Origin: Longimicrobiales bacterium
GTDB lineage: Bacteria; Gemmatimonadota; Gemmatimonadetes; Longimicrobiales; Gaopeijiaceae
Length of the DNA stretch: 64,000 nt
Reading direction: 5' to 3'
NCBI GenBank assembly: GCA_965202805.1
Contig: OZ241869.1
Span: 992,001-1,056,000 of the forward strand
The first letter of the stretch is position 1; the number at the start of each line of letters is the position of its first letter. The notes under the pieces are model-generated. The model was given only the letters and a program-made list of their open reading frames with translations, was not told where the DNA came from and did no database searches. Positions 11,437 to 23,997 of this stretch are shown here, piece after piece. Position numbers and translations under genes: made by a program.

Positions 11437-11503
11437 GCGGCGCTTCCCCTGCGGCGAGAAGTCGACCCGAACCTCGGAGGAGCGAAGTCCGCGAGGAGGC
11501 AAG

Positions 11504-11587
11504 TGCCGGGAGTGGGACTCGAACCCACACGCCCCAACGGGCAAAGGTTTTTGAGACCTTCGCGTCTACCTGTTCCGCCATCCCGGC
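11504..11587 (-). tRNA. tRNA-Leu (anticodon CAA), CCA not encoded
   Basis: GCCGGGATGGCGGAACAGGTAGACGCGAAGGTCTCAAAAACCTTTGCCCGTTGGGGCGTGTGGGTTCGAGTCCCACTCCCGGCA: acceptor stem, AAGGT/ACCTT anticodon stem around CT-CAA-AA, long variable arm, T-loop TTCGAGT. Confidence 0.95.
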
Positions 11588-11593
11588 AGGATG
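11575..11593. repeat. att core, left copy (CCGCCATCCCGGCAGGATG)
   Basis: Identical to 22929-22947; covers tRNA nt 1-13 plus 6 upstream nt. Confidence 0.88.
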
Positions 11594-11667
11594 TTCCCAG
11601 TGGTAATCTGGCTGAAACCATTGAACTTACGCGATTGCGTGTTCGGGTTCCAGCCAATTGGGTCCCG

Positions 11668-12837
11668 CTAATTGCGCGGAGAGCAGACGCCTCGGCGGTC
11701 CTCAAGGGCTCTCCTGAGCTGATCTTCGTCGGCTCGCTGGTAGCATTGGAGCACCGTTCGGGCCGTCTGCCAGCCGCCGAGCTCGCAGAGCACCTTGAGC
11801 GGCTGGTTCATCAGATCCGAAGCGAACTTCCGCCGAAGCGAGTGCCAGCCCCGGCCACGCTTCGGCTCCAGTCCCGCGCGTGCTTCGGCCTTCTGCCACC
11901 AGTCACGGACCAGCCAACGGCTGACGCATGTGGAGGGATCCTTGAAAGTAGGTAGCACAGGTAGGTCCCCGGGGCTGAAGCTCCCTTGCCGCGCCTCGTC
12001 GAGGACCGCGAGCGCCTGGACGGTCAACGGCGTTCGGTGCTCGTAGCCGGACTTGTCGTGCTCGCCCCGCCACCGGACGGTCTTGGTCTCGGTGTCGATA
12101 TCGGACCATCGAAGCTGCCGAATGGCCCCGATACGATGCCCCGTCTCGTGTGCGAGGACGAAGGCGACGCGGAAGCGCCAGTCCATCTCCGCCGACACGC
12201 CGAGCAGGGCCTCGTATTCCGCCTGTGTAAGAAGCACCCGGGTCGGATTCTTCTCCTTCGGCGTCCTGAGGCCTCTCAGGGGATTCGAATCGAGGAGGAG
12301 TCTCCCCTGCTCGTCCCTCGATTTCGCAGCCCAGTTGAGGACTGCGATCAGGAGCTTGAGGTCGTGTTCGATCGTTCGATCGGACACCGGCTTGCCGCTC
12401 GGTCCGACCTCGCCCGACCGCCGCGCCCGGATGAACCGGTCCCAGTCCCTCCGCGACAGCGTAGCCGGATCTCGATTCCGTCCGAGGAATCCGAGAAACA
12501 TCTTCATCGCGGCTCTGTCGTGGAGGCGCGACTGGCAGCCCTTGGTGGGCGTCACCTCCTCACCGTAGATGTCAAAAAGCCTCTCCAGCGTGAGCGGCTC
12601 GGGCTCGGCTTGTGCCTTGCCGTTCAACTCCGGGCCGACGAATCCGGCGGCGAACTCGTCCGCCTGCCGTTTCGCCCTCGCCCAGTCGCGGTGTCCGAGC
12701 GACCGGGTGCGCCTGCGCCCGTTCTCGCGCCACTCCACCTGGAACAAGCCGGTTTTCGGATCCGGGAAGACCCGGACCCTGTTCCGGCCCCACTCGCCGG
12801 CGCCGTAGCTCCGGCGGCTTCGTTTCGTGCGTGCCAT
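11668..12837 (-). CDS. Tyrosine recombinase/integrase
   Basis: Catalytic residues R (TGHRIG), K (HDKSG), HxxR (HSLRR), W (LGGW), Y (QCY); ATG at 12837 preceded by GGGAGG. Confidence 0.92.
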   Translation of the reverse strand: MARTKRSRRSYGAGEWGRNRVRVFPDPKTGLFQVEWRENGRRRTRSLGHRDWARAKRQADEFAAGFVGPELNGKAQAEPEPLTLERLFDIYGEEVTPTKGCQSRLHDRAAMKMFLGFLGRNRDPATLSRRDWDRFIRARRSGEVGPSGKPVSDRTIEHDLKLLIAVLNWAAKSRDEQGRLLLDSNPLRGLRTPKEKNPTRVLLTQAEYEALLGVSAEMDWRFRVAFVLAHETGHRIGAIRQLRWSDIDTETKTVRWRGEHDKSGYEHRTPLTVQALAVLDEARQGSFSPGDLPVLPTFKDPSTCVSRWLVRDWWQKAEARAGLEPKRGRGWHSLRRKFASDLMNQPLKVLCELGGWQTARTVLQCYQRADEDQLRRALEDRRGVCSPRN

Positions 12838-12983
12838 CGTTCGATTCCTCCCGATTCGATGGACTGCACGATCTGCGCGTTTGAAACCTCGCGCAGGGCT
12901 CGCCCGTCGTCCAGAGTTGGCGGCCCGGCCGGTTCTGGCGCGGGCGCGCCACGGGGGCGCTGGTTTCTGCGGTTTGTGGAGGA

Positions 12984-13034
12984 GCCAGATGTGTTTTCGC
13001 TGCACGAAAACCTCTGGCCGGGGGATGCCCCCGG
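12984..13034. other. Putative origin of transfer (oriT) hairpins upstream of mobC
   Basis: Nested inverted repeats GCCAGA..GTTTTCG-N5-CGAAAAC..TCTGGC followed by CCGGGGG-ATG-CCCCCGG, directly upstream of mobC. Confidence 0.55.
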
Positions 13035-13081
13035 ACCCCCGAAACGACACTTCCGCGCGCCACCAAAGGAGGCCGCCCGAC

Positions 13082-13426
13082 ATGGCCCGTCCCCGGAAGC
13101 CCGAGGCCGAACGCAGGAGCCGCACGATCGGCGTGCGCGTCACGACCGCGGAGGCCGCGGAGATCGCCGAGCGGGCCGGAGCGGCCCGCATGACGAGGGG
13201 CGGCTACATGCGCCGCAGGGCGCTCGGGCAGCCGGTCCGCGAGGCGGCCGTTCACCGTCTCGGCGCCAGGGAGCGGGTCGAACTCCACCGGATCGGCGTG
13301 AACCTGAACCAGATCGCCCGCGCCCTGAACTCGGGAGCGTCCGCACCGGCCGGGACGCTGGAGGCGGTCGAGCGGGTGGGCGATCTTGCGGCCGATCTTC
13401 TGAGCGGCGAGGGGCTGGACCGCTGA
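13082..13426 (+). CDS. mobC: MobC relaxosome accessory protein (ribbon-helix-helix)
   Basis: RTIGVRVT.AE...AG.T.GGYMRRRAL, ELHRIGVNLNQIARALN; AAGGAGG SD. Confidence 0.9.
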   Translation: MARPRKPEAERRSRTIGVRVTTAEAAEIAERAGAARMTRGGYMRRRALGQPVREAAVHRLGARERVELHRIGVNLNQIARALNSGASAPAGTLEAVERVGDLAADLLSGEGLDR

Positions 13427-14619
13427 TCCCGAAGATCAACGGACTGGGCCGCTCGTTCGCCGGGGTCGCGGCGTACTGCCTCCACGATGCCCCGGAGCCG
13501 GACGACCGCCGGCCGAGGACGTCGGAGCGGGTCGGGTGGGCCGACACCCGCAACCTCGCGACGTTCCGGCCGGAGCGGGCCGCGCGGCTGATGGCCGCGA
13601 CGGCGAGGGCGGCTCCCGACCTCAAGCGGCTTTCGGGCGTGGCGCGAGGGGGCCGGAAGCTGGCGAAGCCGGTCCTGCACTACTCGCTCAGCTGGGCGCA
13701 GGACGAGACGCCCGACAAGCGGGAGATGAGCCGGGCGGTGGACCGGAGTCTGGAGGCGCTGGGGCTGGAGGGCCACGAGGCGCTGATCGTCGCGCACGAG
13801 GACACCGGGCACCCGCATGTCCACGTCATCGCCAACCGTGTCGATCCAGAGACCGGGAAGGCGGCGACGCTGGGCAACAGCAAGCTCCGGCTGTCGCGCT
13901 GGGCCGAGGGCTACGAGCGCGAGCAGGGCCGGATCCGGTGCGAGAGGCGGGTCGAGAACAACGAGCGGCGGCGGGCGGGCAAGCAGGTGCTTCGCCTCAC
14001 GGGGGATCGGCCGCGCCACTGGGCGCGCGTCCGCCGCGAGGGGATGCAGCCCGGGCGGGCGCGGCGGGCGAGGACGCCGCGCGAGGAGGAGCGGGTCGAC
14101 TTGGAGGCATGGCGGCACCTTGAGGCGGAGGCTTGGGAGAAGGTCGAGGACGGGCGCGAGTGGGGCTTCCGGCACCTTGAGACCCGGGCGCGGAGGGAAT
14201 GGGCCGAGCTGCACAAGCGGCAGGAGGAGATGCGGCAGAGGCTCGACCGGGAGAGCCGTACCGTGCTCGGGCGGCTCCGGATCTGGCGGATCGAGCGCTC
14301 GTTGCGGGAACTGGTCGGTGCGGTCCGGGGCCGGGAGGACCTGGTCGAGGGCTGGCGCGACGATCTCGCCCGGAATCACAGGGACGAACGGGCCGCGCTG
14401 GGCAAGGCACACGGCGAGCGCGCCCGGGAGATCGAGCGCGGTGTGCGTAAGCACTATCGAAGCGGGCTGGTGGACGCGGAGCGGCGCGCATGGGCAGTGC
14501 GGGAGACGATGAGGGAGCGCCAAGAGACGGGGGAGCGGGAGAGCGGTCCGAGCATCATCATCCCCATTTCCCCCCGGCGCAAAGGCCCCGAGCGTGGCGG
14601 GGGAGGGTTCGAGCGATGA
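13423..14619 (+). CDS. MOBP-type (MobA/VirD2-like) relaxase, apparent CTG start
   Basis: (L)IPKI..GRSFAGVAAYCLHD motif I Tyr, HYSLSW motif II, AHEDTGHPHVHVIANRV HUH motif III, typical GPERGGGGFER tail. Confidence 0.88.
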   Translation: MIPKINGLGRSFAGVAAYCLHDAPEPDDRRPRTSERVGWADTRNLATFRPERAARLMAATARAAPDLKRLSGVARGGRKLAKPVLHYSLSWAQDETPDKREMSRAVDRSLEALGLEGHEALIVAHEDTGHPHVHVIANRVDPETGKAATLGNSKLRLSRWAEGYEREQGRIRCERRVENNERRRAGKQVLRLTGDRPRHWARVRREGMQPGRARRARTPREEERVDLEAWRHLEAEAWEKVEDGREWGFRHLETRARREWAELHKRQEEMRQRLDRESRTVLGRLRIWRIERSLRELVGAVRGREDLVEGWRDDLARNHRDERAALGKAHGERAREIERGVRKHYRSGLVDAERRAWAVRETMRERQETGERESGPSIIIPISPRRKGPERGGGGFER

Positions 14620-14844
14620 CCCTTGACGCGCGCCGAGATCTTCCGCCTCGGGATGTTGCCGGTGACCGCGTGGCGGAAAGTCGGTGCGATCAGCCGCGTG
14701 TAACGCCGCGCCGATTCAGGCGGCGGAACACAGCAAGCTGCCCAAAGTGATCCGGTTGCTTCTCGAGATCCCCGGATTGGACACGCTCCCGGCTGGCTTC
14801 GGTCCTACGCCCCCGCCTGGGAGAACCGGCGGCGCCATCCCCGC

Positions 14845-15261
14845 TCACGGAGAGCGCGCGACGAACACGGCCTGCAAGTGCGTCTCCCCCTCTTCCTTGG
14901 CAGCTATGAATCTGTGCCTGCCGTCCAAGACCGCCAGCGTACCGCCGGGCAGGCCGCGCACAACGAGCGGGCGGTCTCGATATGTCCGCTCCCGGCGCAG
15001 CTTTTCAATCCACTCGCGACAGGCGAGCGCGGGATCCTGAATGGAGACCACACGACGAAGCGCGATCCGTTCAGCGGGCAACGTCGCGCTCATGGTATCC
15101 ATGACATGCGTCCTCAGGTCCATTGCAATGGCGTGACCGGAGTCGTCGTCCCGAGTCGCGTCAATTGCTCGTTCGAGGCTAACAAACCAGCGCCTTAACG
15201 TCTCGCCATCGTACGTCCCCGCCGCCAACCCGTCCTCAATCTTCCCGACGGTCATGCTCAT
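14845..15261 (-). CDS. Small ParB/sulfiredoxin N-terminal-like domain protein
   Basis: RPLVVR...AVLDGRHRFIAAKEEGETHLQAVFV matches the ParB/Srx core; GGGAGG SD upstream of ATG 15261. Confidence 0.6.
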   Translation of the reverse strand: MSMTVGKIEDGLAAGTYDGETLRRWFVSLERAIDATRDDDSGHAIAMDLRTHVMDTMSATLPAERIALRRVVSIQDPALACREWIEKLRRERTYRDRPLVVRGLPGGTLAVLDGRHRFIAAKEEGETHLQAVFVARSP

Positions 15262-15660
15262 TTCAGTTGGCCTCCCGGCCTCTGGCCGCTGGCGGCCGTC
15301 CGTCGTCTCCAGCAAGCCACGGCATTTGGCCATCTCACGCGGGGAGGCGTCGGTGCCGATGTGGGCCAGTAGAGCGGCCGCGGTGGATGGCCGGAAGCCC
15401 CTGCCCTCTCATCCAAACCGAGCACCCGCGCGATAGCCGTCAGCCTGCCATGACACACCCCGTCCGCGAGGTGTCGAAAATGTCGGGGTCCGAGCGCTGT
15501 CCCGCGGGAGAGAGCGGAGCGCGGGCGCCGGTCAATCGGAATGGTGCGCAGGAAAGTCCCGTCGCGCGCGTCCGGTACGTCACTTCGCCGGTGACGCCAG
15601 AGGGTGCAAGCATCCGGTGCCATGCGGTCGCCGGCAGGCACGTGCCGGCACCGAGGACCC

Positions 15661-16158
15661 TCACCGGGCGGATTCCTCCCCACGAAAGGCCATCTGGATA
15701 GCGCGGCGTCGGTTGTCGGTGGCTTCTTTGTCCGCTCCCCAAGCGGCAATCCGTCTGGTTTGGGCAGCGCGCGTCTCCGGTGTCTCGTGCTCCGGGCACC
15801 AAACCGCGATTTTGACTCGCTCAGGGTGTTCCTGTAAGCACTCGGGACAGGGCTCTACGGCCGCGATGCGCCGGGCGGCCTCAAGGCAGACGCCGAACTC
15901 CGTTGCGTCTTCCAATTGCTGCGCCAGCTCCCACAGCATCAGGCCGGCACTGTCCCGTTGCCATGCACTGGCGTCCCGCAAACGGCCCGTGGCCACCCCG
16001 ACCGCCTTGAGTGCGTCCCGCTCGGTCGCCAAGCCCTTGCGAAGGGTTGCTGCGTAGCTCCAAGCCAGGGCGATCAGAAGAGACACCGCAATCGCCGCCC
16101 AGAGGGGAATCCCCCACCACAAGGCCAACACCGCAAGCACCGCCCACCGCCAGATCAC
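15661..16158 (-). CDS. Hypothetical membrane protein with CxxC...CxxH motif
   Basis: Hydrophobic N-terminus WAVLAVLALWWGIPLWAAIAVSLLIALAW; CPEC...CPEH; GTG start overlaps the upstream stop. Confidence 0.5.
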   Translation of the reverse strand: MIWRWAVLAVLALWWGIPLWAAIAVSLLIALAWSYAATLRKGLATERDALKAVGVATGRLRDASAWQRDSAGLMLWELAQQLEDATEFGVCLEAARRIAAVEPCPECLQEHPERVKIAVWCPEHETPETRAAQTRRIAAWGADKEATDNRRRAIQMAFRGEESAR

Positions 16159-16381
16159 GTCACCGGCGCTCCGGCTTTTCGCCCGCACTGGAGCAAGTCG
16201 GGAGTCACAGCCCGCCCCCATGAACAACGGGTGCCGCACCGACCGAAAGCTCCCTGTAGCGCGATGGAGAAGCCACGGTACACCGAGTCGAAAAGGTTGA
16301 CTTGTGGTTCCGGCATCCGTTCACCCCGCACTCCAAGCGGCTCCGAGTCGACCTCCAAGGAGGTCTCGCTCCGGTACGACG

Positions 16382-17809
16382 CTACCGTCCTCCAACGTCG
16401 CGTCTTGCCCGCTCAAGATCCCCTTGTCGGTATTGGAAACTGGAGCAGCGATCGTTGTAGCGGTCCACTATTCGGTCGAAGGCATCATGATCCCCCTCGC
16501 TCACTACGTTGGGGCGGTACCTTTCGATCATTCGATCCTCGCGTAGGCACCACCTCAGTTGCGGCAGGGACAGGATCAGGTCGGTGCCGGGCGGCGGCAT
16601 TTCGAAGCCGATTTCCTCCGCGGCAGGCGGCGACGAACGTACCGTGTCAGGCGGCTTACCGGTGTCGAGTAGCTGCTCGACCGCATTCTCGATGGTGACG
16701 TAGTCGGTGCCCGGCAGCCTTCTCGCGGCTCCGCTTCCGCGGCTGACCAGAACGATCGGGGTACCGGTGAGGTTGAGCGCGCTGGCCAGTCGGAGATTCG
16801 CCGACACGCGGTCGGCGTGTCGGTCCGAGTTGAGGCAGTCGCGAAACGCGCCGTCGTCGAGCCCCAAGGTACGGGCGTAGCCGACGAAGTTGCGAACAGG
16901 ATCGCCCGAAGCCGCCCACGAGAGCTGATTGTCGAAGAGCGTGGTGTGGTATTCCCAGTAGCGGTGCTGGTCCCCGGCACAGTGGGACGCTCTCGACGCG
17001 AGGAACGAGTTGGAGTGAATGCCCACAAGCGGCAGGTCGTAGAAGACGAACTTCGCCCGCCCCGTGCCAACTAGGTTCAACTCGATGAGAGGCTTGACGC
17101 CTGAGGCGAACATGGCGCAGCCCTGGCACTGATAGCCCCCGAACTCCACAACCGAGATGGGAGCGGCTGGGTCTCCCATTTCGCTTCCGTATGCCAGGTT
17201 GACGAGTTCTTCGTCGGAGAGATCGCCCAGGTCCACGGGCTCGGTGACCGCGCTGTTGAACACCGTCGAGCCGGTCGTATAGACCGCCGGCACCACGTTG
17301 ACGAGTACTTCGTTCATTCGATCGCGGATACCTTCCGTTGCGACCAACGCCCCTGCCACCACAACCAACCCAGCAGGTACTGCTACAAGCCACTTACGAC
17401 GCTGGCTGTTGGGCCTTCTGTTACGTCCGATCCCACTCGGGGAAGCGGCAGGTGGCCGCTGTGGATCCTCTTGGTCGTGCGAAGCCCACGCCCGCTCTTT
17501 GTCCCGCTGATCACGCTCTCGGTGGTTACGTTCCGAGCGCTGTTGCGGCTCGCGCTCTGGTTGTCGGGGGCCTTGCGGTCCCCGATGCTTGTGATCTTCC
17601 CGCCGTCGGGATCGCGTCCCTTCGATAGGCTTAAGGCGCTCGTAAGCTTCGCCGACCTGTTTGAAGATCCACTCAGAGGCCTTGTCTCCCGGATTCTTGT
17701 CCGGGTGGTGCTTCTTTGCCAAGCGTCGATATGCCGACCGGATCTCTTCCCAAGTTGCCCCTTGTTCGAGGCCGAGGACTTCGTACGGATCCAAGTCGCG
17801 ACTTCTCAT
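16382..17809 (-). CDS. DnaJ-domain / TM / DsbA-like thioredoxin fusion protein
   Basis: DPYEVLG...[15 protein letters not shown] domain; [49 protein letters not shown] DsbA features. Confidence 0.8.
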
Positions 17810-17952
17810 TCCGTCTCCGCAGCCGGTCTGTCGCCCCGCTCCCGCTGCCGGGCATTACGTTTCGAAACACGACCGCTCCCGGATCATGAGGGCGTGTGCG
17901 AGCATCGTACGGATCGAGAACCATGTCGGGCAAGCCTCCGGTTCTCCTGACC

Positions 17953-20379
17953 TTATCGCGCGGCCTCCCAGGCTTGCCGCATCCCCGGGAGCGCTTCGCG
18001 CAGGACCGCATCGATCCGGATGTACAGGCCCTGTATCCGCCGCTCCTTTTGCCCGGCCGTCAGGCTTCTGTCCATGCGGACCTGATCCCCTTCACGGCGA
18101 AGGCGCGACGCTTGCCGCTGAGCTCGCTCGCTTCGATTGTCCGCACGGCGGATGGCTGGCGGGATTCGAGCACGATTCCGTGAAGCCCCGGCGATCTGCC
18201 TGTCCAGCCAATCGGCCAGTTCATAGAATTCGTCGCTGGCTCGCGTGAACGTCCTCGGTCTTGTCGGTTGCAGGCTGTACACGCCGGTCAGCAGACGCGC
18301 GGTCTTCGGAAAAGGCTTGGGGCCGTTGCGCCTCGTATCCCACATGACTTGCTCGTCGAGTACCGCCACCACCGCGTTGCCAAGATGGCCCGTCCATCCC
18401 CGCACGAAGGTCTGGACGTGCAACGGCGACACGCTCAGCACCGATCCGACGGCCCGGTACGGCAGCGGAGTGCTGCGGTGGAAGTATCGTTCCTCAGCGG
18501 GCCAGTACATCATGTAGGCGGGGATGACTTCCTCCCCGAAGAAGTTGCGGTTGGTCCGGACTTCGACGAAGGGCTGTGCAACGGCCGGAATCCAACCCAC
18601 TGCCAGGTTGCCGTGAATCAACGACCAGACGAACTTCGGTCCCGCTTGGGTGCCGCTTCCGAACGTGAGGTCCAACGCCACTTCGGGCAGTTTCACGAAC
18701 ACGGCGCCGATTTGAAACGGAACCGGAATGCGGACGTCCGTGTCGCCCCAAGCATCGTATAGCGTCACCCAGGACGCTTTCTCGTAGTCGGTCTGATTCC
18801 GGTACTCGGCGCGCCGGGCATTCCAAAGATCGTTGTGCCACCACCCCGCTGCGGCCAGCAGCGACAGGCAGAGTCCCGACGCAAACGTCTTGGCGACGTG
18901 GCGCCTCCGCTCATGTCCCCACCGCGGCGCGCCCTTCGCGGCCCGCCGACGGAACCGGACGATCTGGTAGAGTTGATCGAAGCCCTGGATCGCGGCGTTC
19001 AGGAACGGCACGGTGTGGACGTACATTCGCCATCCCCGGGACGACCCGATGTTGGCGAAGTCCGCGGAGACCATGCGTGCGGCCCGGGCGGCCATGTAGT
19101 CCGTGGCGCCCGCCCTCCGAGCCCTCTGGAACTGATCGACCCGGGTACCCGCTTCGGCGATCCACGCGGGCCGTGTCAGCACGTAGACGAAGCGGGTCCA
19201 TCGTCGCCGAGTGATCCCACCCTGGATCGTGCCCCGGTTCTCGCCCCGCACGTCCCCCAGATGAACTTCCGATTCCACCAAGCCCGAGTAGAAGCCCCCT
19301 TGAAGCAGGTACTCGCGCATGCGGCGCGATCTCCCAGTGGCCAGATCGTGCATCGCGTGCAAGCCGCCAAAAAGCGTTCCCAAGAAGGGAAGCTGCCAGT
19401 ACCGGCCCGCCACGAAGCCTGCAAGCGTATCGCGGAAGAAGTTCTTGACGATGAACACCGGCATCGCGGTAATCATCGTCGAGACGGCCGTCTTGAAGGC
19501 GGCCAGGAATCGGATGAGTCCCGGCATCGGCGCCTCCGCGATGCTGCTCAGCATGGAGGCAAGCGCGTCGTCGCGGACCACGAAGCGTCTTCGTCTGCCC
19601 CGTACCACTGCCACGGTGGGACCGGCGCCATGTGTCTGGGTAGGACCGAGCGTTTCCGACGCGATACGGTTCCCATCGGGATGGCTCGTCACAGTATCGA
19701 ACAGTTCGCTACGGGCGCGACACGCGAGCGCGTTGTAGATGTTCCGGGCAAAGACGTTCCTGAGCGCGATGACCAGATCCCCGTCGAGCGCTTCCATCGC
19801 GTCATCATGTTCCGGTCGGTCCCGTAGAGAACCGTCGGCATTGCCGAAGGGCGCCAACACCGGGATGCCTTCCCTCCTGTAGCGCTCGGCTTCGGCCGCG
19901 GTCAGGTAGCGCATTTGGGTGTAGTAGAGCAGCATCGCGCGGTGAAGTCCGACGAGCCGGACCGCGAACTCGGCTACGTCGGGGTTCTCCGAGGCGTACC
20001 GGAGCAGACGGTGTTGCGCGGGCGAGAGCGGCTGCGCCGTGGCGCGGTGGTGATCGCCTCCGAACAATGCGGCGCAGTGGACGGCCTTCTCGAAATGGCT
20101 GTGGCCTTTCCTCGCGACCGGCTTGACGATGCTCCGCAGGCTATGCGTGTCCTCGACAGCCACTCGCCCGGTGCCGTCCGGCGACTCAGCGAACGCTCCG
20201 TAGCGCCAGATGTATTCAGCGAGGGATCTGGCGTGGTTGATGTCCTCGAAGCGGTAGCCCACGTCGTCGTTCCCAAACCACTCGCCTATCGTCTGTGCCG
20301 CGTGCCAGCGGTGAACGAAACGCGTGCGGATGGAGCGTAGGCGGCTGTCCGCAAGTCGCCCGATGCGCCGTGTACTCAT
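17953..20379 (-). CDS. LPD38-domain (large polyvalent protein / phage internal-protein C-terminal-like) protein
   Basis: KNFFRDT, ADFANIG, VPFLNAAIQG, RIPVPFQIGAVF..LPE, P..QPFVEV.TNRNFFG motifs recognised as LPD38-type. Confidence 0.7.
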   Translation of the reverse strand: MSTRRIGRLADSRLRSIRTRFVHRWHAAQTIGEWFGNDDVGYRFEDINHARSLAEYIWRYGAFAESPDGTGRVAVEDTHSLRSIVKPVARKGHSHFEKAVHCAALFGGDHHRATAQPLSPAQHRLLRYASENPDVAEFAVRLVGLHRAMLLYYTQMRYLTAAEAERYRREGIPVLAPFGNADGSLRDRPEHDDAMEALDGDLVIALRNVFARNIYNALACRARSELFDTVTSHPDGNRIASETLGPTQTHGAGPTVAVVRGRRRRFVVRDDALASMLSSIAEAPMPGLIRFLAAFKTAVSTMITAMPVFIVKNFFRDTLAGFVAGRYWQLPFLGTLFGGLHAMHDLATGRSRRMREYLLQGGFYSGLVESEVHLGDVRGENRGTIQGGITRRRWTRFVYVLTRPAWIAEAGTRVDQFQRARRAGATDYMAARAARMVSADFANIGSSRGWRMYVHTVPFLNAAIQGFDQLYQIVRFRRRAAKGAPRWGHERRRHVAKTFASGLCLSLLAAAGWWHNDLWNARRAEYRNQTDYEKASWVTLYDAWGDTDVRIPVPFQIGAVFVKLPEVALDLTFGSGTQAGPKFVWSLIHGNLAVGWIPAVAQPFVEVRTNRNFFGEEVIPAYMMYWPAEERYFHRSTPLPYRAVGSVLSVSPLHVQTFVRGWTGHLGNAVVAVLDEQVMWDTRRNGPKPFPKTARLLTGVYSLQPTRPRTFTRASDEFYELADWLDRQIAGASRNRARIPPAIRRADNRSERAQRQASRLRREGDQVRMDRSLTAGQKERRIQGLYIRIDAVLREALPGMRQAWEAAR

Positions 20380-21151
20380 GCCGTCCCGTGCGTCAAGTGA
20401 CCGTCACCATCAGCCAGTGAAGGGCGAGTCGGATGAGGGGGCACTGCATGTCGCCCCGCCCACTAGGAAATGCTCCCGGGCGGACGGGGTCCTTCAAGAT
20501 TCAACCCGATCTCCCAACAGCCGAGCGTGACGGACATATAACGTTGCTCGGCCCGCATCAAAAGGAGGCACATGGGACCCAGCCAGTTTCTCGCGCCCTC
20601 GATGGCTGTCAATTCGCGCCACGCGGCGGCGTCGGCCTAAGAGGCCATCGTGGGAGATGCAACCTTCCCCGACGGCCAAGCGCCGGATGTTCTCCCGCGG
20701 ACCACCGATTCACCGCCGGTCGAGGCCGTCGGTTTCGCAGGTGAGGTCTGGGGCGTGACCGGCGACCGCGTGGTCGGCGTTGCCACCGCTCCGGCGCCGG
20801 TCCCCCGGCCTCCGGGACGGGCTTCGCCCGTCCCTCCCGCCGGGTCGAGCCGCCGCGCCGACACCGACGGAAATCCCAAGGGTCTCAGGGAAGCGGAGCG
20901 TCCCTTGCCAGACCGCCGTGTTCAAACACGGCATCGGCTGGCTCTCCCGCCGCAGCGGCGTCTGTCCCCCTCCGTGTTCTCCTGCCTGAGGTCGATACCG
21001 CTGAACCGCTCCCGAAAACTCTCGGCGAGGGGGGAAAGCACCGTGCAACCGGGCGGCGGATCGACTGGGTAGACCGGCCTCGGTCACCTCGCTGTCCACA
21101 GGCCGTAACAGTCCGCGGCCATCGAGGAAACGCGGAGGATCGGAGCCAGCT

Positions 21152-22144
21152 TCACGGGTTTCGCCTCTCGCAGCGTCGCAGTTCCTCACGCCAAAATTCC
21201 GCCACCGCCGCCACGCCATCCGCGAAACCCGAAGCAAACGAGGGTTGCGCGAGTCGGTCCGCCAGATAGGAGGAGGGGCTATAAGAGGAGGAGTGTGGCA
21301 TCCATGCCGCCGCCACCGCCGCCGCGCTCGCGGCCCCGCTAACGAAGCCAGATGTGGCGTCCGCCACGTTTGGCTCCTCGCCCCGGCGAATCTCGTTGGT
21401 CCGTTCGATGGCGAGGGCTCCCGCCCACGCCGCCGCGTCATAGGCAATCCACCAAGCGACCGTCCGCGCCTTCGCCGCCGCCTCAAACTCCGCCCAGTCC
21501 GCCGCCGCCTCCGCCTCTTGTCTCGCGCTCATCGCCGCTTGCGCGGCCTCGAAGTATACAGAATCCCGGCGTGCCGATATGGCATTTCGCTTCACGAACG
21601 GTGAAAGTCCCTCCCATCGCGGCCCATACCTCGCCCGGGCCGCTGCCTCCGCCGCGCCCATATCTGCCGAAAACGCCTCCCACGCGTCCGCCTCCGTCTC
21701 TTCCGCCAACGCCCTCGCTTCTTCCGCCGCCCAGTACTCCCGCACTGCCTCCCACGCCGAATTCCTGGCCGCCCAGCTCCCATGCAGCGGCCTCATCACG
21801 CTCCCGGGTCCTAAGGTCGGGTCCGTAATCAGGTCCGCGATCCCTGTCAAACTCGCAGGCGCTCCCTCGGGGGCCGGTGCTAGGTCCGAGAGCCAAGCCG
21901 CTATTCTTCGGGGAAGTTCGCAAAGGTCCCTGTCCGGCAGGTCTTGGCCCGTGACGGCGACGGGGAGCACCAACAAGACCGCAAGCGTGATCGCCGTACG
22001 TCTTGCGGCCTCGGCTCTCAATGCCTTCGCCCACATCCGCGCTGCGCTGCGCTTCCCCCTAATAGGGCTCAAGGCCCGCGCCGCGCTTGCAGAGGCGTGG
22101 GCGCAAGACCCTGTGGACGCCGCCCTGTCGTTCGGTCCCGTCAT
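21152..22144 (-). CDS. Hypothetical Ala/Glu/Trp-rich helical protein with signal/TM segment
   Basis: 330-aa ORF, GGAGG SD, TAITLAVLLVLPVAVTGQ signal-like segment. Confidence 0.5.
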   Translation of the reverse strand: MTGPNDRAASTGSCAHASASAARALSPIRGKRSAARMWAKALRAEAARRTAITLAVLLVLPVAVTGQDLPDRDLCELPRRIAAWLSDLAPAPEGAPASLTGIADLITDPTLGPGSVMRPLHGSWAARNSAWEAVREYWAAEEARALAEETEADAWEAFSADMGAAEAAARARYGPRWEGLSPFVKRNAISARRDSVYFEAAQAAMSARQEAEAAADWAEFEAAAKARTVAWWIAYDAAAWAGALAIERTNEIRRGEEPNVADATSGFVSGAASAAAVAAAWMPHSSSYSPSSYLADRLAQPSFASGFADGVAAVAEFWREELRRCERRNP

Positions 22145-22444
22145 GCTGTCGCCTCCATGTACCGGGGGAGCGCGAGCGTGGCCCAGTCTGCCTCTGGGTT
22201 ACGTAGCCACCTCAGGCACGCACACCGCCGCGTCGGGCCACCGGGCCACCACGGCCAGCGCTGCTCTCTTGGCTGTCGCCGTCTTCCGTGCCTCATCCGC
22301 CTCCACCGCAGCCAAGATATCCGCATCCTCCACCCCAGCCGCCTCCAGCACCTCCCGCACTGAATCCGCCAGCCTCCTTGCCGAGGCCGCCTTCGCCTCC
22401 GCTCTCCACGCCTTTGCTAGGTCCCTCGCTTTACCATGGCTCAT
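22141..22444 (-). pseudogene. Small Ala-rich hypothetical protein, probably frameshifted near 22225
   Basis: 81-aa ORF (22199-22444) with SD; the alternative frame CLRWLRNPEADWATLALPRYMEATA ends in an ATGA overlap with the next gene. Confidence 0.35.
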
Positions 22445-22928
22445 TTGGCGGCCTCGTGCTCCTCAGGTGTGTCCGTTACGGGACCGGGACGTTCCGCCCC
22501 GCCTGGTCCGCTAAAACCTACCATCGTCCACGCGGCGTCGCCAACGAGTTGGCTGGAGCCGTTCCTCACGTCCAAACGCGCCAATTGGGTTGCCGCTCAA
22601 GCGGCTCCGATCCTTGGAAGTTCGGTCTCACGTCAACGATCACGGCGAGGACAACGAGGGCCGCGCGATCGCAGACCGAGGGGGCATGAACCAGCGTCGA
22701 GCGAAAGGAAGCTGGCTTGTGACGCGCCACGGCTTGCGACGGCAGTAAAGGGCGAAGGAAAGCCCTGACACGGGAGGCGGAAATAGTCCGAAGTCCCGCC
22801 ATCTGATACGGTTTCCCCGCCGTTTTAGCGCGCTGGAAGCAGACAATGGTGCAACGGCAAGAAACGCAGATCGTGCAGCCCTGATTGAACTTACGTGATC
22901 TCTTGCCGTGATTCGCGCCACCTGCAAC

Positions 22929-22947
22929 CCGCCATCCCGGCAGGATG
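22929..22947. repeat. att core, right copy (displaced 5' fragment of tRNA-Leu)
   Basis: CCGCCATCCCGGCAGGATG identical to 11575-11593. Confidence 0.88.
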
Positions 22948-22956
22948 GAGCGGTAT

Positions 22957-22985
22957 AAGCTACCCTGTAGCGCTTCGCCCGCAAA
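22957..22985 (-). promoter_or_regulatory. Putative native sigma70-type promoter of tRNA-Leu, now facing into the element
   Basis: Minus strand TTGCGG/TTTGCG-N16/17-TAGCTT ending about 15 nt before the tRNA 5' fragment. Confidence 0.45.
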
Positions 22986-23086: not shown

Positions 23087-23710
23087 TCAGAGTGCGACCT
23101 GGTCGCCCGCCGGCGTCTCCAGCACGGCAACCAGCCCCGCCCGCCCCACCGCCACTCCGAGCCCGACGCCGAGCCGATCCAGTTCGCGCCGCACCAACGC
23201 CGGATCGGGATGGCGCCCACTCAGCCGGACGAGGCGGACTCCCCGGTCGGGGAGTTGGGCACAGGGATGCGGGGTGTCACCCCAGTCGATGAAGAAGGGG
23301 ATGATGCCCTGCCGGGGAAGCGGCTTCCGGGGCATCGTGAGCGTCCAGGCGATGCGTTCGCCGCCGGGCCTGGTGCGGGACATGGGTCGCAGCGGACCCA
23401 GGAGGTGGCCGCCCGGACCGGCGGCCAGGCCGTCCAGATCGGCGGAACGGACCGCCCAGGTCACCAGCGCCGGCAGCGGGGCCTTGCCGCCGGTGAACCA
23501 GAGGCCGCCGGCCGGCGCCGGTTGCTCCGGGTCCGGACCCACGACCTCCAGGTAGATGCGGTCACCGATGCGCAACAGGCAGTTGCGCGTGCCGAGTCCC
23601 GGATGGCTGCCTCCGGGCGTCGGGTGTGCGCCGAGGCGTTCCTCGATGTCGCGCACCCCGGCCGCGAGGTCGGGAACCCCGTAGACGAGGTGGTCGGTTC
23701 CCGGGGGCAC
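23087..23710 (-). CDS. VOC/glyoxalase-like family protein; start uncertain
   Basis: DHLVYGVPDL, GGSHPGLGTRNCLL...YLEVVGPDPEQ, PFFIDWG..PHP. Confidence 0.85.
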   Translation of the reverse strand: MPPGTDHLVYGVPDLAAGVRDIEERLGAHPTPGGSHPGLGTRNCLLRIGDRIYLEVVGPDPEQPAPAGGLWFTGGKAPLPALVTWAVRSADLDGLAAGPGGHLLGPLRPMSRTRPGGERIAWTLTMPRKPLPRQGIIPFFIDWGDTPHPCAQLPDRGVRLVRLSGRHPDPALVRRELDRLGVGLGVAVGRAGLVAVLETPAGDQVAL

Positions 23711-23997
23711 CGGCTCATGACCAGGACGAGTCGCCACCCCGCGCGCACATTCGGAATCAGTCATTGATCGCGGGGTGGGAGGACGAGGTTGACGCATGGG
23801 GGTCCACGGCCGAGGGAAGGTTCGTCAACGTAGCACCGAACTGCGCTGTCCGGCGATGTGCGACAGGCGATGCCGGTACGATCATCGGCGACCCTCTGGT
23901 GAGCATCATCAGGAGGCGGGATGTTAGTTTGAGGTTGACGAGAATCCGTCGCCCCCGCGCGACGATGCGCCGGCTCCACGACCCAGGTAGCAGACCC

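Follow-up and report, generated by a model that had tools for sequence, protein, structure and literature searches.

An integrative mobilizable element in front of a tRNA-Leu gene in a Longimicrobiales genome, and a possible antisense role for its attachment arm

The element considered here occupies 11,354 bp in the genome of a Longimicrobiales bacterium (Gemmatimonadota), within a 64,000-nucleotide stretch (contig OZ241869.1 of assembly GCA_965202805.1, positions 992,001 to 1,056,000) that we refer to as the window; the genome itself (G000) is a single contig of 4.02 Mb. It is an integrative mobilizable element (IME) lying between an intact tRNA-Leu gene, the sole gene of G000 with the anticodon CAA, and that gene's likely promoter. 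Its ends are marked by CCGCCATCCCGGCAGGATG, a 19-bp sequence present in two exact copies in the window, 11,354 bp apart (0.06 expected by chance; none of 100 shuffles with two matches), which comprises 6 nt of leader and nucleotides 1-13 of the tRNA, the extent given by an original prediction made from the letters alone. Between the copies are an integrase with all six catalytic residues (R235, K262, H332, R335, W356 and Y366), a relaxase, a MobC-like protein and an oriT-like region (Table 1). No conjugation family was seen among the 12 open reading frames (ORFs) of the element that were scanned, and the one coupling-protein family searched for, PF02534, was not found in G000. Together with the repeat and the empty sites in relatives, this gene content bears out the prediction of an IME in front of the tRNA. 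Nucleotides 1-2 of the tRNA and its leader would then be derived from the element; an Rfam scan of the element matched only the tRNA. The further claim that all recognisable cargo is on the minus strand is right for the DnaJ-DsbA, LPD38 and integrase genes; mobC and the relaxase have the plus orientation, so the claim stands for recognisable genes in general only if those for mobilisation are not counted.

The empty site implied by such an insertion, with the host VOC gene beside the tRNA, was found in four of the ten VOC-gene loci of the genus, where the VOC gene, promoter and tRNA directly adjoin; two of the other six have a left end (the attL side) of the same element family at the same spot, two have other DNA after a short tRNA fragment and two have unrelated DNA. 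Among the 18 genomes of the genus with a CAA gene, G000 included, the integrase-side arm of the family lies directly upstream of that gene in nine (seven with an integrase, two with the arm only), eight retain a native TTTGC-N17/18-TAG[CG]TT region and one has neither. The tRNA-Leu(TAA) gene shares its 5' end with tRNA-Leu(CAA), and the arm lies upstream of it in 6 of 12 loci among the matches listed, as well as in G000. In the window the displaced promoter pairs TAGCTT (22957-22962) with TTTGCG (22980-22985), 17 bp apart, and this pair is kept, with a variable spacer, in the eight genomes just mentioned. The promoter call is based on conservation, because a sigma-70 scan of the window, judged uninformative along with the terminator scan, did not call it. 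Both the predicted -10 box and the claim that the promoter now faces into the element are sustained by the conserved pair and the layout of the empty sites.

A spacing rule for the attachment (att) sites, derived from three paralogous integrases of G000 (74-75%), reads: a TAAGTTCAA-like motif, 35 nt, a 7-bp overlap, 18 nt, GAATC. Applied to 78 loci in metagenome-assembled genomes, mostly of Gemmatimonadota, the rule placed the overlap on the anticodon loops of tRNA-Ile and tRNA-Pro, on the centres of palindromes and on CGGGATG, which is +3..+9 of tRNA-Leu; it also fell on anticodon loops of tRNA-Val. Out of sample, in a set from five genomes that included 92 of 117 matches to the integrase (90 of them scored; short fragments were excluded and loci capped at 30) and 107 of 113 to the left end, an identical 7-mer was predicted at both ends for 34 of the 59 integrases with a candidate left end, and 22 different 7-mers were involved. 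Natural variants bracket the site: a difference between host leader and element leader is seen at -4 in G011 and at -2 in G008, and identity with the tRNA at left ends extends to +13 in the window and to +9 to +11 in relatives (some left ends diverge as late as +14), which places the crossover between about -2 and +9/+11. Strand exchange is most likely at tRNA +3..+9, in the acceptor stem.

By sequence comparison the integrase is a member of a Gemmatimonadota family with a fixed att geometry and many targets. A pattern for its left end gave 263 matches in 18 of 19 genomes of the genus (at most 35 per genome; none for the reversed control), five genomes have 38, 30, 23, 15 and 11 integrase matches at E<=1e-30, and 82 of 301 genomes of the phylum have one at E<=1e-40. 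Among 194 left ends with enough flank, one (L247) was dropped as a chance match, and the remaining 193 show 95 different 7-bp overlaps. Their targets are unclassified in 106 cases, two multicopy palindromes in 50 and sibling integrase genes in 18; tRNA genes account for five acceptor-stem (Leu), seven upstream-type anticodon and seven classical insertions, so that homologous integrases at tRNA 5' ends, which were looked for, are represented by 12 of the 19 tRNA-targeted left ends. In a FastTree phylogeny with midpoint root (138 of 166 proteins; the 28 without an arm call were left out here and in the promoter comparison below) targets track the integrase clades, the Leu clade having a support of 1.0, and related integrases use the same 7-mer in both orientations. 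The family may retarget by changing or flipping the 7-bp overlap within a rigid att frame. For the most part, members with 42-52% identity, found in other taxonomic families, belong to tRNA islands of the classical type. Comparisons with characterised proteins gave no relative: phage integrases reach at most 31%, the best PDB match has E 0.008 and the nearest Atlas clusters are mostly from Gemmatimonadota. No Pfam arm-binding domain was matched.

If the native promoter now faces away, the tRNA would have to be transcribed from the element side, as the original prediction proposed, and this is very likely in view of a sister element and of arm remnants that lack a native promoter. The sister, element B (G000:C1:2001249-2045917; L169, L170), supplies the 5' half of the only credible tRNA-Ile(GAT) gene of G000 and extends for 44.6 kb before it with genes on both strands, which suggests that transcription of this tRNA must come from the element end. 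In G001 an integrase-less arm of ~130 nt stands alone between tRNA-Leu(CAA) and a divergent aconitase gene, and in G000 a similar remnant precedes tRNA-Leu(TAA) (G000:C1:370630-370810), with the first arm repeat lost and TGGAAT-N17-TAAGTT kept; no native promoter was found at either, and at the second read-through from a co-oriented gene could contribute. The TAAGTT of the arm resembles the TANNNT boxes of the host, and a T at the first position of the -35 box occurs in 12 of 13 elements upstream of a tRNA versus 5 of 125 others, an enrichment that reflects two lineages only. Read-through from the integrase gene is an alternative to an element promoter, and the TAAGTTCAA motif in the candidate promoter could instead be a host-factor site, perhaps for integration host factor. 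The tRNA would have a plausible promoter in both the integrated and the empty state.

In the far arm, at the opposite end of the element, there is a 16-mer with reverse complementarity to the integrase leader, and this antisense segment is 96-100% conserved at 15 of its 16 positions over the 193 left ends. The stem that holds it co-varies (pair 12-55 is AU in 24 arms and GC in 19; 0/500 shuffles), with 90 GC, 64 AU, 23 GU and 6 AC in 186 arms. The leader coincides with the 3' end of a xis-like helix-turn-helix ORF in 13 of the 14 distant elements and in 38 of the 162 close ones, and folding predicts that the integrase AUG is paired in 149 of 150 close leaders. For 28 close elements with arm and leader matched up, the duplexes comprise 433 Watson-Crick pairs and 15 G·U and are free of mismatches, although with so little sequence variation this is a weak test. 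Four paired elements show one change that has its counterpart in the partner and another that leaves a G·U. More telling are 14 elements with 42-52% identical integrases, taken together with the window, among which 14 of 15 arms pair with their own, different leader at +43..+52. The value for cognate duplexes is -45.9 kcal/mol versus -32.7±6.3 for non-cognate ones (0/20,000 permutations), and the cognate leader ranks first in 10/15. Strand-neutral alignments of this set contain 361 matches, 41 G·U, 18 A·C and 20 transversions, and the duplex with the int-sense strand is the more stable in 12/15. Arm and leader are in this sense complementary in a co-varying manner, as an antisense regulator and its target would be. 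In the literature searched, mostly outside subscription journals, there was no account of an att-arm antisense RNA to an int leader.

Our preferred reading, to which we assign a probability of roughly 0.55, is that an IME whose integrase recombines at tRNA-Leu +3..+9 has left the tRNA to be fed from the element end and the displaced promoter facing an arm hairpin, which would act as an antisense RNA on the AUG-burying leader of int. Since the int AUG is predicted to sit in a hairpin, int would normally be translated only when coupled to a xis that precedes it. Once the element is excised as a circle, transcripts running out of int would cross attP into the far arm and so contain the antisense segment, which would loosen the leader hairpin and yield Int without Xis, so that integration is favoured; integration would then separate the arm from int and leave the integrated state with coupled Xis and Int. 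In upstream-type insertions the host tRNA promoter might supply the arm RNA constitutively, even when the element is integrated, and such RNA would possibly act also on sibling elements that share the 16-mer. Host promoters were considered and rejected as the general source, there being no promoter-like pattern in left ends of the "other" class, and most distant members being classical; nor was an internal promoter definable in the far arm from the 193 left ends. As a host promoter is lacking at the left end of most members, the general source would be transcription across attP or an internal promoter. The wider proposal, that the family sets the direction of recombination by an att-encoded antisense switch, which frees integrase translation only upon transcription across it (through the circle junction in ordinary members, from a captured tRNA promoter in upstream-type ones, whose RNA could act in trans on dozens of siblings), and that it retargets through the 7-bp overlap to reach an acceptor-stem subsite outside those of Islander, seems to us to fall somewhat short of even odds.

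Several observations weigh against the antisense reading or the parts on which it is built. Among the distant elements, the cognate pairing takes only rank 13 in G241, a failure of the test, and rank 5 in G205, two of the arm/leader pairs are cross-contig guesses, and the permutation p-values overstate the case because kin are not independent. The wobble bias of close leaders can also be explained by the leader's own hairpin and was downgraded. Whole arms raise the predicted accessibility of the ribosome site in only 6/15, and the whole arm of the window does not open the leader in cofolding (ddG -5.2 vs -5.2±2.9 for shuffles). No transcript, transcription start site or strand was seen for an arm RNA in the assembled contigs of the runs examined (no ranking of expression was based on the summed depth of RNA runs over int); one contig of RNA run X19, with a depth of 114, joins the 3' end of a relative's int to a far arm, and this joint may be a circle or a tandem junction, in RNA or in DNA, the tandem or DNA option being the unfavourable one. 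The spacing rule left 25 of 59 integrases that were not pairable with a left end, often in nested arrays. Only 62% of far arms have a T as the sixth base of the TAA motif, the -35 of the element looks weak beside the TTG- promoters of the host, and the T at the first position of that -35 may serve a local hairpin instead.

The same co-varying complementarity would serve equally if the arm RNA were a repressor, its duplex of 16-25 bp blocking xis-int coupling or being cut by RNase III, so that the captured promoter keeps this and sibling elements quiet; a duplex of this length suits RNase III. What makes this improbable to us, though the most serious of the competing explanations, is that the segment covers the strand that buries the AUG and not the Shine-Dalgarno (SD) sequence or the AUG, and that the free segment is predicted to increase accessibility of the ribosome site in 10/15 elements and to decrease it in one (G219); this last case and the little-changed values in four others are those that repression would account for, and the downstream sib of lambda does lower int mRNA (PMC5300877). 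Somewhat less probable again, segment and leader might be two inverted DNA sites for Xis, Int or another protein of the element, with no RNA pairing and with the promoter exchange a by-product. Like an accessory site, the segment is found at a constant distance from the core; the whole arm also folds on itself, and directionality factors that bind the int promoter as well are known. Binding sites on DNA would hardly favour G·U over A·C (41 vs 18) or one strand's pairing (12/15), nor leave a second change as G·U in four paired elements, and the segment is conserved although only 38/162 close leaders contain an in-frame xis.

The explanation offered by the original prediction, in which integration and excision switch both the expression of cargo from the tRNA promoter and the supply of the UUG-decoding tRNA, now appears very unlikely. 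The host promoter does face the element, the minus strand from there to the first ORF gave no intrinsic terminator, the DnaJ-DsbA and LPD38 genes are co-oriented with it, and the site is a hotspot, occupied in 9/18 genomes. By a crude frame test of 184 scorable left ends, though, the first coding-like frame is on the same strand in 61, on the opposite strand in 81 and absent in 42, and the element of G011 at the same site has an opposite-strand first gene; because of this mixed orientation, cargo is not a conserved target of the host promoter. In the window the nearest recognisable cargo starts 2.5 kb from the promoter. As judged from sequence conservation, the first conserved thing that the captured promoter meets is the antisense hairpin and not cargo. 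The supply of the UUG-decoding tRNA fares no better as a switch: a plausible promoter is available in both states, UUG makes up 2865 of 860,336 sampled codons, and G000 has a tRNA-Leu(TAA), which can read UUG.

The state of the window copy also argues against such a switch. It has no xis of its own, the single xis-like gene of G000 being on element B (2044250-2044504), so that it would need a xis from elsewhere in the genome to excise; its relaxase starts with CTG (ATG in four homologues, TTG in one). The joint between 11575 and 22929 expected after excision was absent from the contigs of X1, X2, X24, X18, X19, X20, X22 and X13, and neither the attP circle nor the attB joint that excision would produce was listed in those of X1 and X2, which may be the source sample, although assembled contigs drop rare forms. 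Depth is even across the element and its flanks. With PF02534 not found in G000 either, the copy looks stabilised.

Table 1. Features of the element, its attachment regions and the adjoining host genes, in window coordinates
Feature	Position	Strand	Basis
tRNA-Leu(CAA), intact	11503..11587	-	ARAGORN; Rfam RF00005
attR copy of the 19-bp direct repeat, tRNA side	11575..11593		exact repeat
Predicted 7-bp overlap CGGGATG (tRNA +3..+9), 35 nt from the TAAGTTCAA motif	11579..11585	-	family spacing rule; natural brackets
Hairpin of the integrase-side arm, in the interval from int stop to tRNA	11605..11659	-	z -5.6 for 11590-11680
Candidate outward promoter TGGAAC-N17-TAAGTT, towards tRNA	11621..11652	-	sequence pattern only
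Tandem repeats AATTAGCGGGA / AATTGGCTGGAA, likely arm-type integrase sites (role inferred)	11648..11673	-	sequence
Tyrosine integrase, 389 amino acids, pointing at the tRNA 5' end	11668..12837	-	PF00589; phrog_1
Integrase leader: 16-mer GCAGATCGTGCAGTCC (12861-12876), SD (12846-12851), AUG-burying hairpin; remnant of xis 3' end	12826..12876	-	folding, comparison
oriT-like region: inverted repeat 12993-13011 beside nic-like CATCTGG	12978..13100		sequence
MobC/NikA-like relaxosome accessory protein	13082..13426	+	PF21983, PF05713
MOBP relaxase	13423..14619	+	PF03432; NF041893
ParB/Srx-like ORF, weak match	14845..15333	-	phrog_1033 E 2e-4; SerK model E 3e-3
Cargo: DnaJ domain fused to DsbA/thioredoxin domain	16382..17809	-	profile matches
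Cargo: LPD38-domain protein, C-terminal part of large polyvalent proteins	17953..20379	-	PF18857; phrog_9854
Two ORFs nearest the host promoter (330 amino acids, 21152-22144; 81 amino acids, 22199-22444)	21152..22444	-	ORF calls
Far-arm repeats AACGGCGGGGAA / GATGGCGGGA, likely arm-type sites (role inferred)	22794..22824	-	sequence
Far-arm stem CGGCAAGAG / TTCTTGCCG; loop with TAAGTTCAA (22885-22893) and antisense segment	22855..22908	-	covariation
Antisense segment GGGCTGCACGATCTGC, complement of the int leader apart from one G·U	22866..22881	-	sequence pairing
attL copy of the 19-bp repeat; predicted overlap 22933-22939	22929..22947		exact repeat
Native tRNA promoter TTTGCG-N17-TAGCTT, now facing the element	22957..22985	-	conservation in relatives
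Host VOC/glyoxalase-like gene, neighbour of the tRNA at empty sites	23087..23797	-	PF13468

Some of these features have counterparts elsewhere. The oriT-like region, whose CATCTGG we take to resemble a nic site, occurs in 36 distinct copies among the loci fetched, including element D (G000:C1:1109200-1115790, L168), which has no relaxase homologue. The core sequence CATCCTGC likewise looks like the IncP nic consensus; as part of the host leader it was rejected as a nic site. The DsbA part of the DnaJ fusion (16671-17296) is 87% identical to a gene at 3332464-3333114 of G000, which suggests capture from, or exchange with, the chromosome. At 20668-20943 there is a repeat of ~180-280 bp that resembles a miniature inverted-repeat transposable element, with copies in G000 at 483414, 1698005 and 3538180 (84-86%) and also in G011. 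The ORFs at 22199-22444 and 21152-22144 had no family match in the profile scans, and the Atlas was blank for the latter.

Other insertions of the family give an impression of its range. Its commonest targets, the multicopy palindromes ACCCTGACGTWACGTCAGGGT and TCTGCCAWWWTGGCAGA, occur at 15 and 21 places in G000, often paired ~30 bp apart, and might conceivably be MerR operators; elements D and C (3196622-3215520) both lie inside ACCCTGACGTWACGTCAGGGT. The 18 left ends inside a sibling integrase gene or leader (L144, L167, L207, L209, L237, L250, L261, L285 and others) are found in both orientations. At 238907, 504232 and 3312975 of G000:C1 there are left arms with the antisense segment and no family integrase nearby, and at L071 an integrase of the upstream type and another of the classical type were each assigned to tRNA-Ile, the overlap having opposite orientations in the two. 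Upstream-type insertions (L460 in G182 and L458 in G348) are found also at tRNA-Ala(TGC), for a 50% relative, and at tRNA-Val(TAC). The tRNA-Val(TAC) gene of G000 (G000:C1:3960250-3960348) is preceded by TAAGTTCCAAGCA, which resembles a family arm two bases off the spacing rule and is either native or a remnant.

A close parallel in layout is provided by Islander (PMC4383910), in which 159 of 3919 islands have a displaced 5' fragment and lie upstream of the tRNA; such islands were described by Zhao and Williams 2002, as cited in PMC6563490 and PMC1635311. The window has the same arrangement, with an intact tRNA, a co-oriented 5' fragment upstream at the far end, a tyrosine integrase between them and a length within 2-200 kb. 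Islander lists only anticodon, T-loop and junction subsites, whereas the crossover predicted here, on the 5' strand of the acceptor stem, where the fragment is 9-13 nt long, would be outside all three. In having a single tyrosine integrase, a relaxase, MobC, an oriT-like site and no conjugation genes the element resembles the helper-dependent IMEs surveyed in PMC5704250; those are mostly present in one copy (2-6 for IMEs of low specificity) with tRNA targets at 3' ends, in contrast to the 11-38 integrase matches per genome found here in five genomes, with each clade having its own target. Integrases of the Tn916 type (PMC8138268) likewise combine many target sites with nested insertions, but need no overlap homology and use loose AT-rich targets, whereas the overlaps here match at both ends in 34/59, and the clade-specific targets are not AT-rich.

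As in ICEKp1 (PMC13023037) and ICEclc (PMC5812530), the promoters of the host tRNA and of the element end appear from the sequence to exchange roles on integration, and the Discussion of the ICEKp1 paper proposes that a 15-nt end sequence pairs with a stem-loop in the 5' untranslated region (UTR) of int. In those elements int follows directly on the tRNA and reads away from it, and control is exerted in cis at int transcription by way of the 5' UTR. The present int is oriented towards att and separated from the host promoter by 10 kb; the segment complementary to its leader is 3' of int in the circle and covers the predicted translation-start hairpin. With lambda sib the element shares a sequence beyond int, across attP, that becomes part of the int transcript only when the DNA is not integrated; sib acts from the 3' end and reduces int mRNA (PMC5300877), whereas the distal segment here is complementary to the 5' leader and is predicted to raise translation. 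By analogy, then, the element is predicted to work like the promoter switching of ICEKp1 and ICEclc and like lambda sib, without their layout. Islands with a 5' fragment are themselves already known; the value of the present case lies in the predicted subsite in the acceptor stem, in a family that retargets and in an antisense arm that co-varies with its leader. No account of this integrase family or of the subsite was found in the literature searched, in which subscription coverage was thin; Williams 2002, Zhao and Williams 2002 or TIGER 2020 may list the subsite.

The manner in which an element supplies integrase without excisionase at the right moment has been worked out for few elements only. 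If the antisense reading is true, an att-arm RNA kept by compensatory change would be a compact and testable answer to this problem, even though the genomes concerned are metagenome-assembled. The integrase family can be regarded as a natural library of closely related tyrosine integrases (65-93% identity) that share one att geometry and for which dozens of targets have been mapped; it is suited to studies of how specificity changes. For the host, elements or their remnants precede the single-copy tRNA genes Leu-CAA, Leu-TAA and Ile-GAT of G000, and its translation may therefore depend on promoters derived from these elements.

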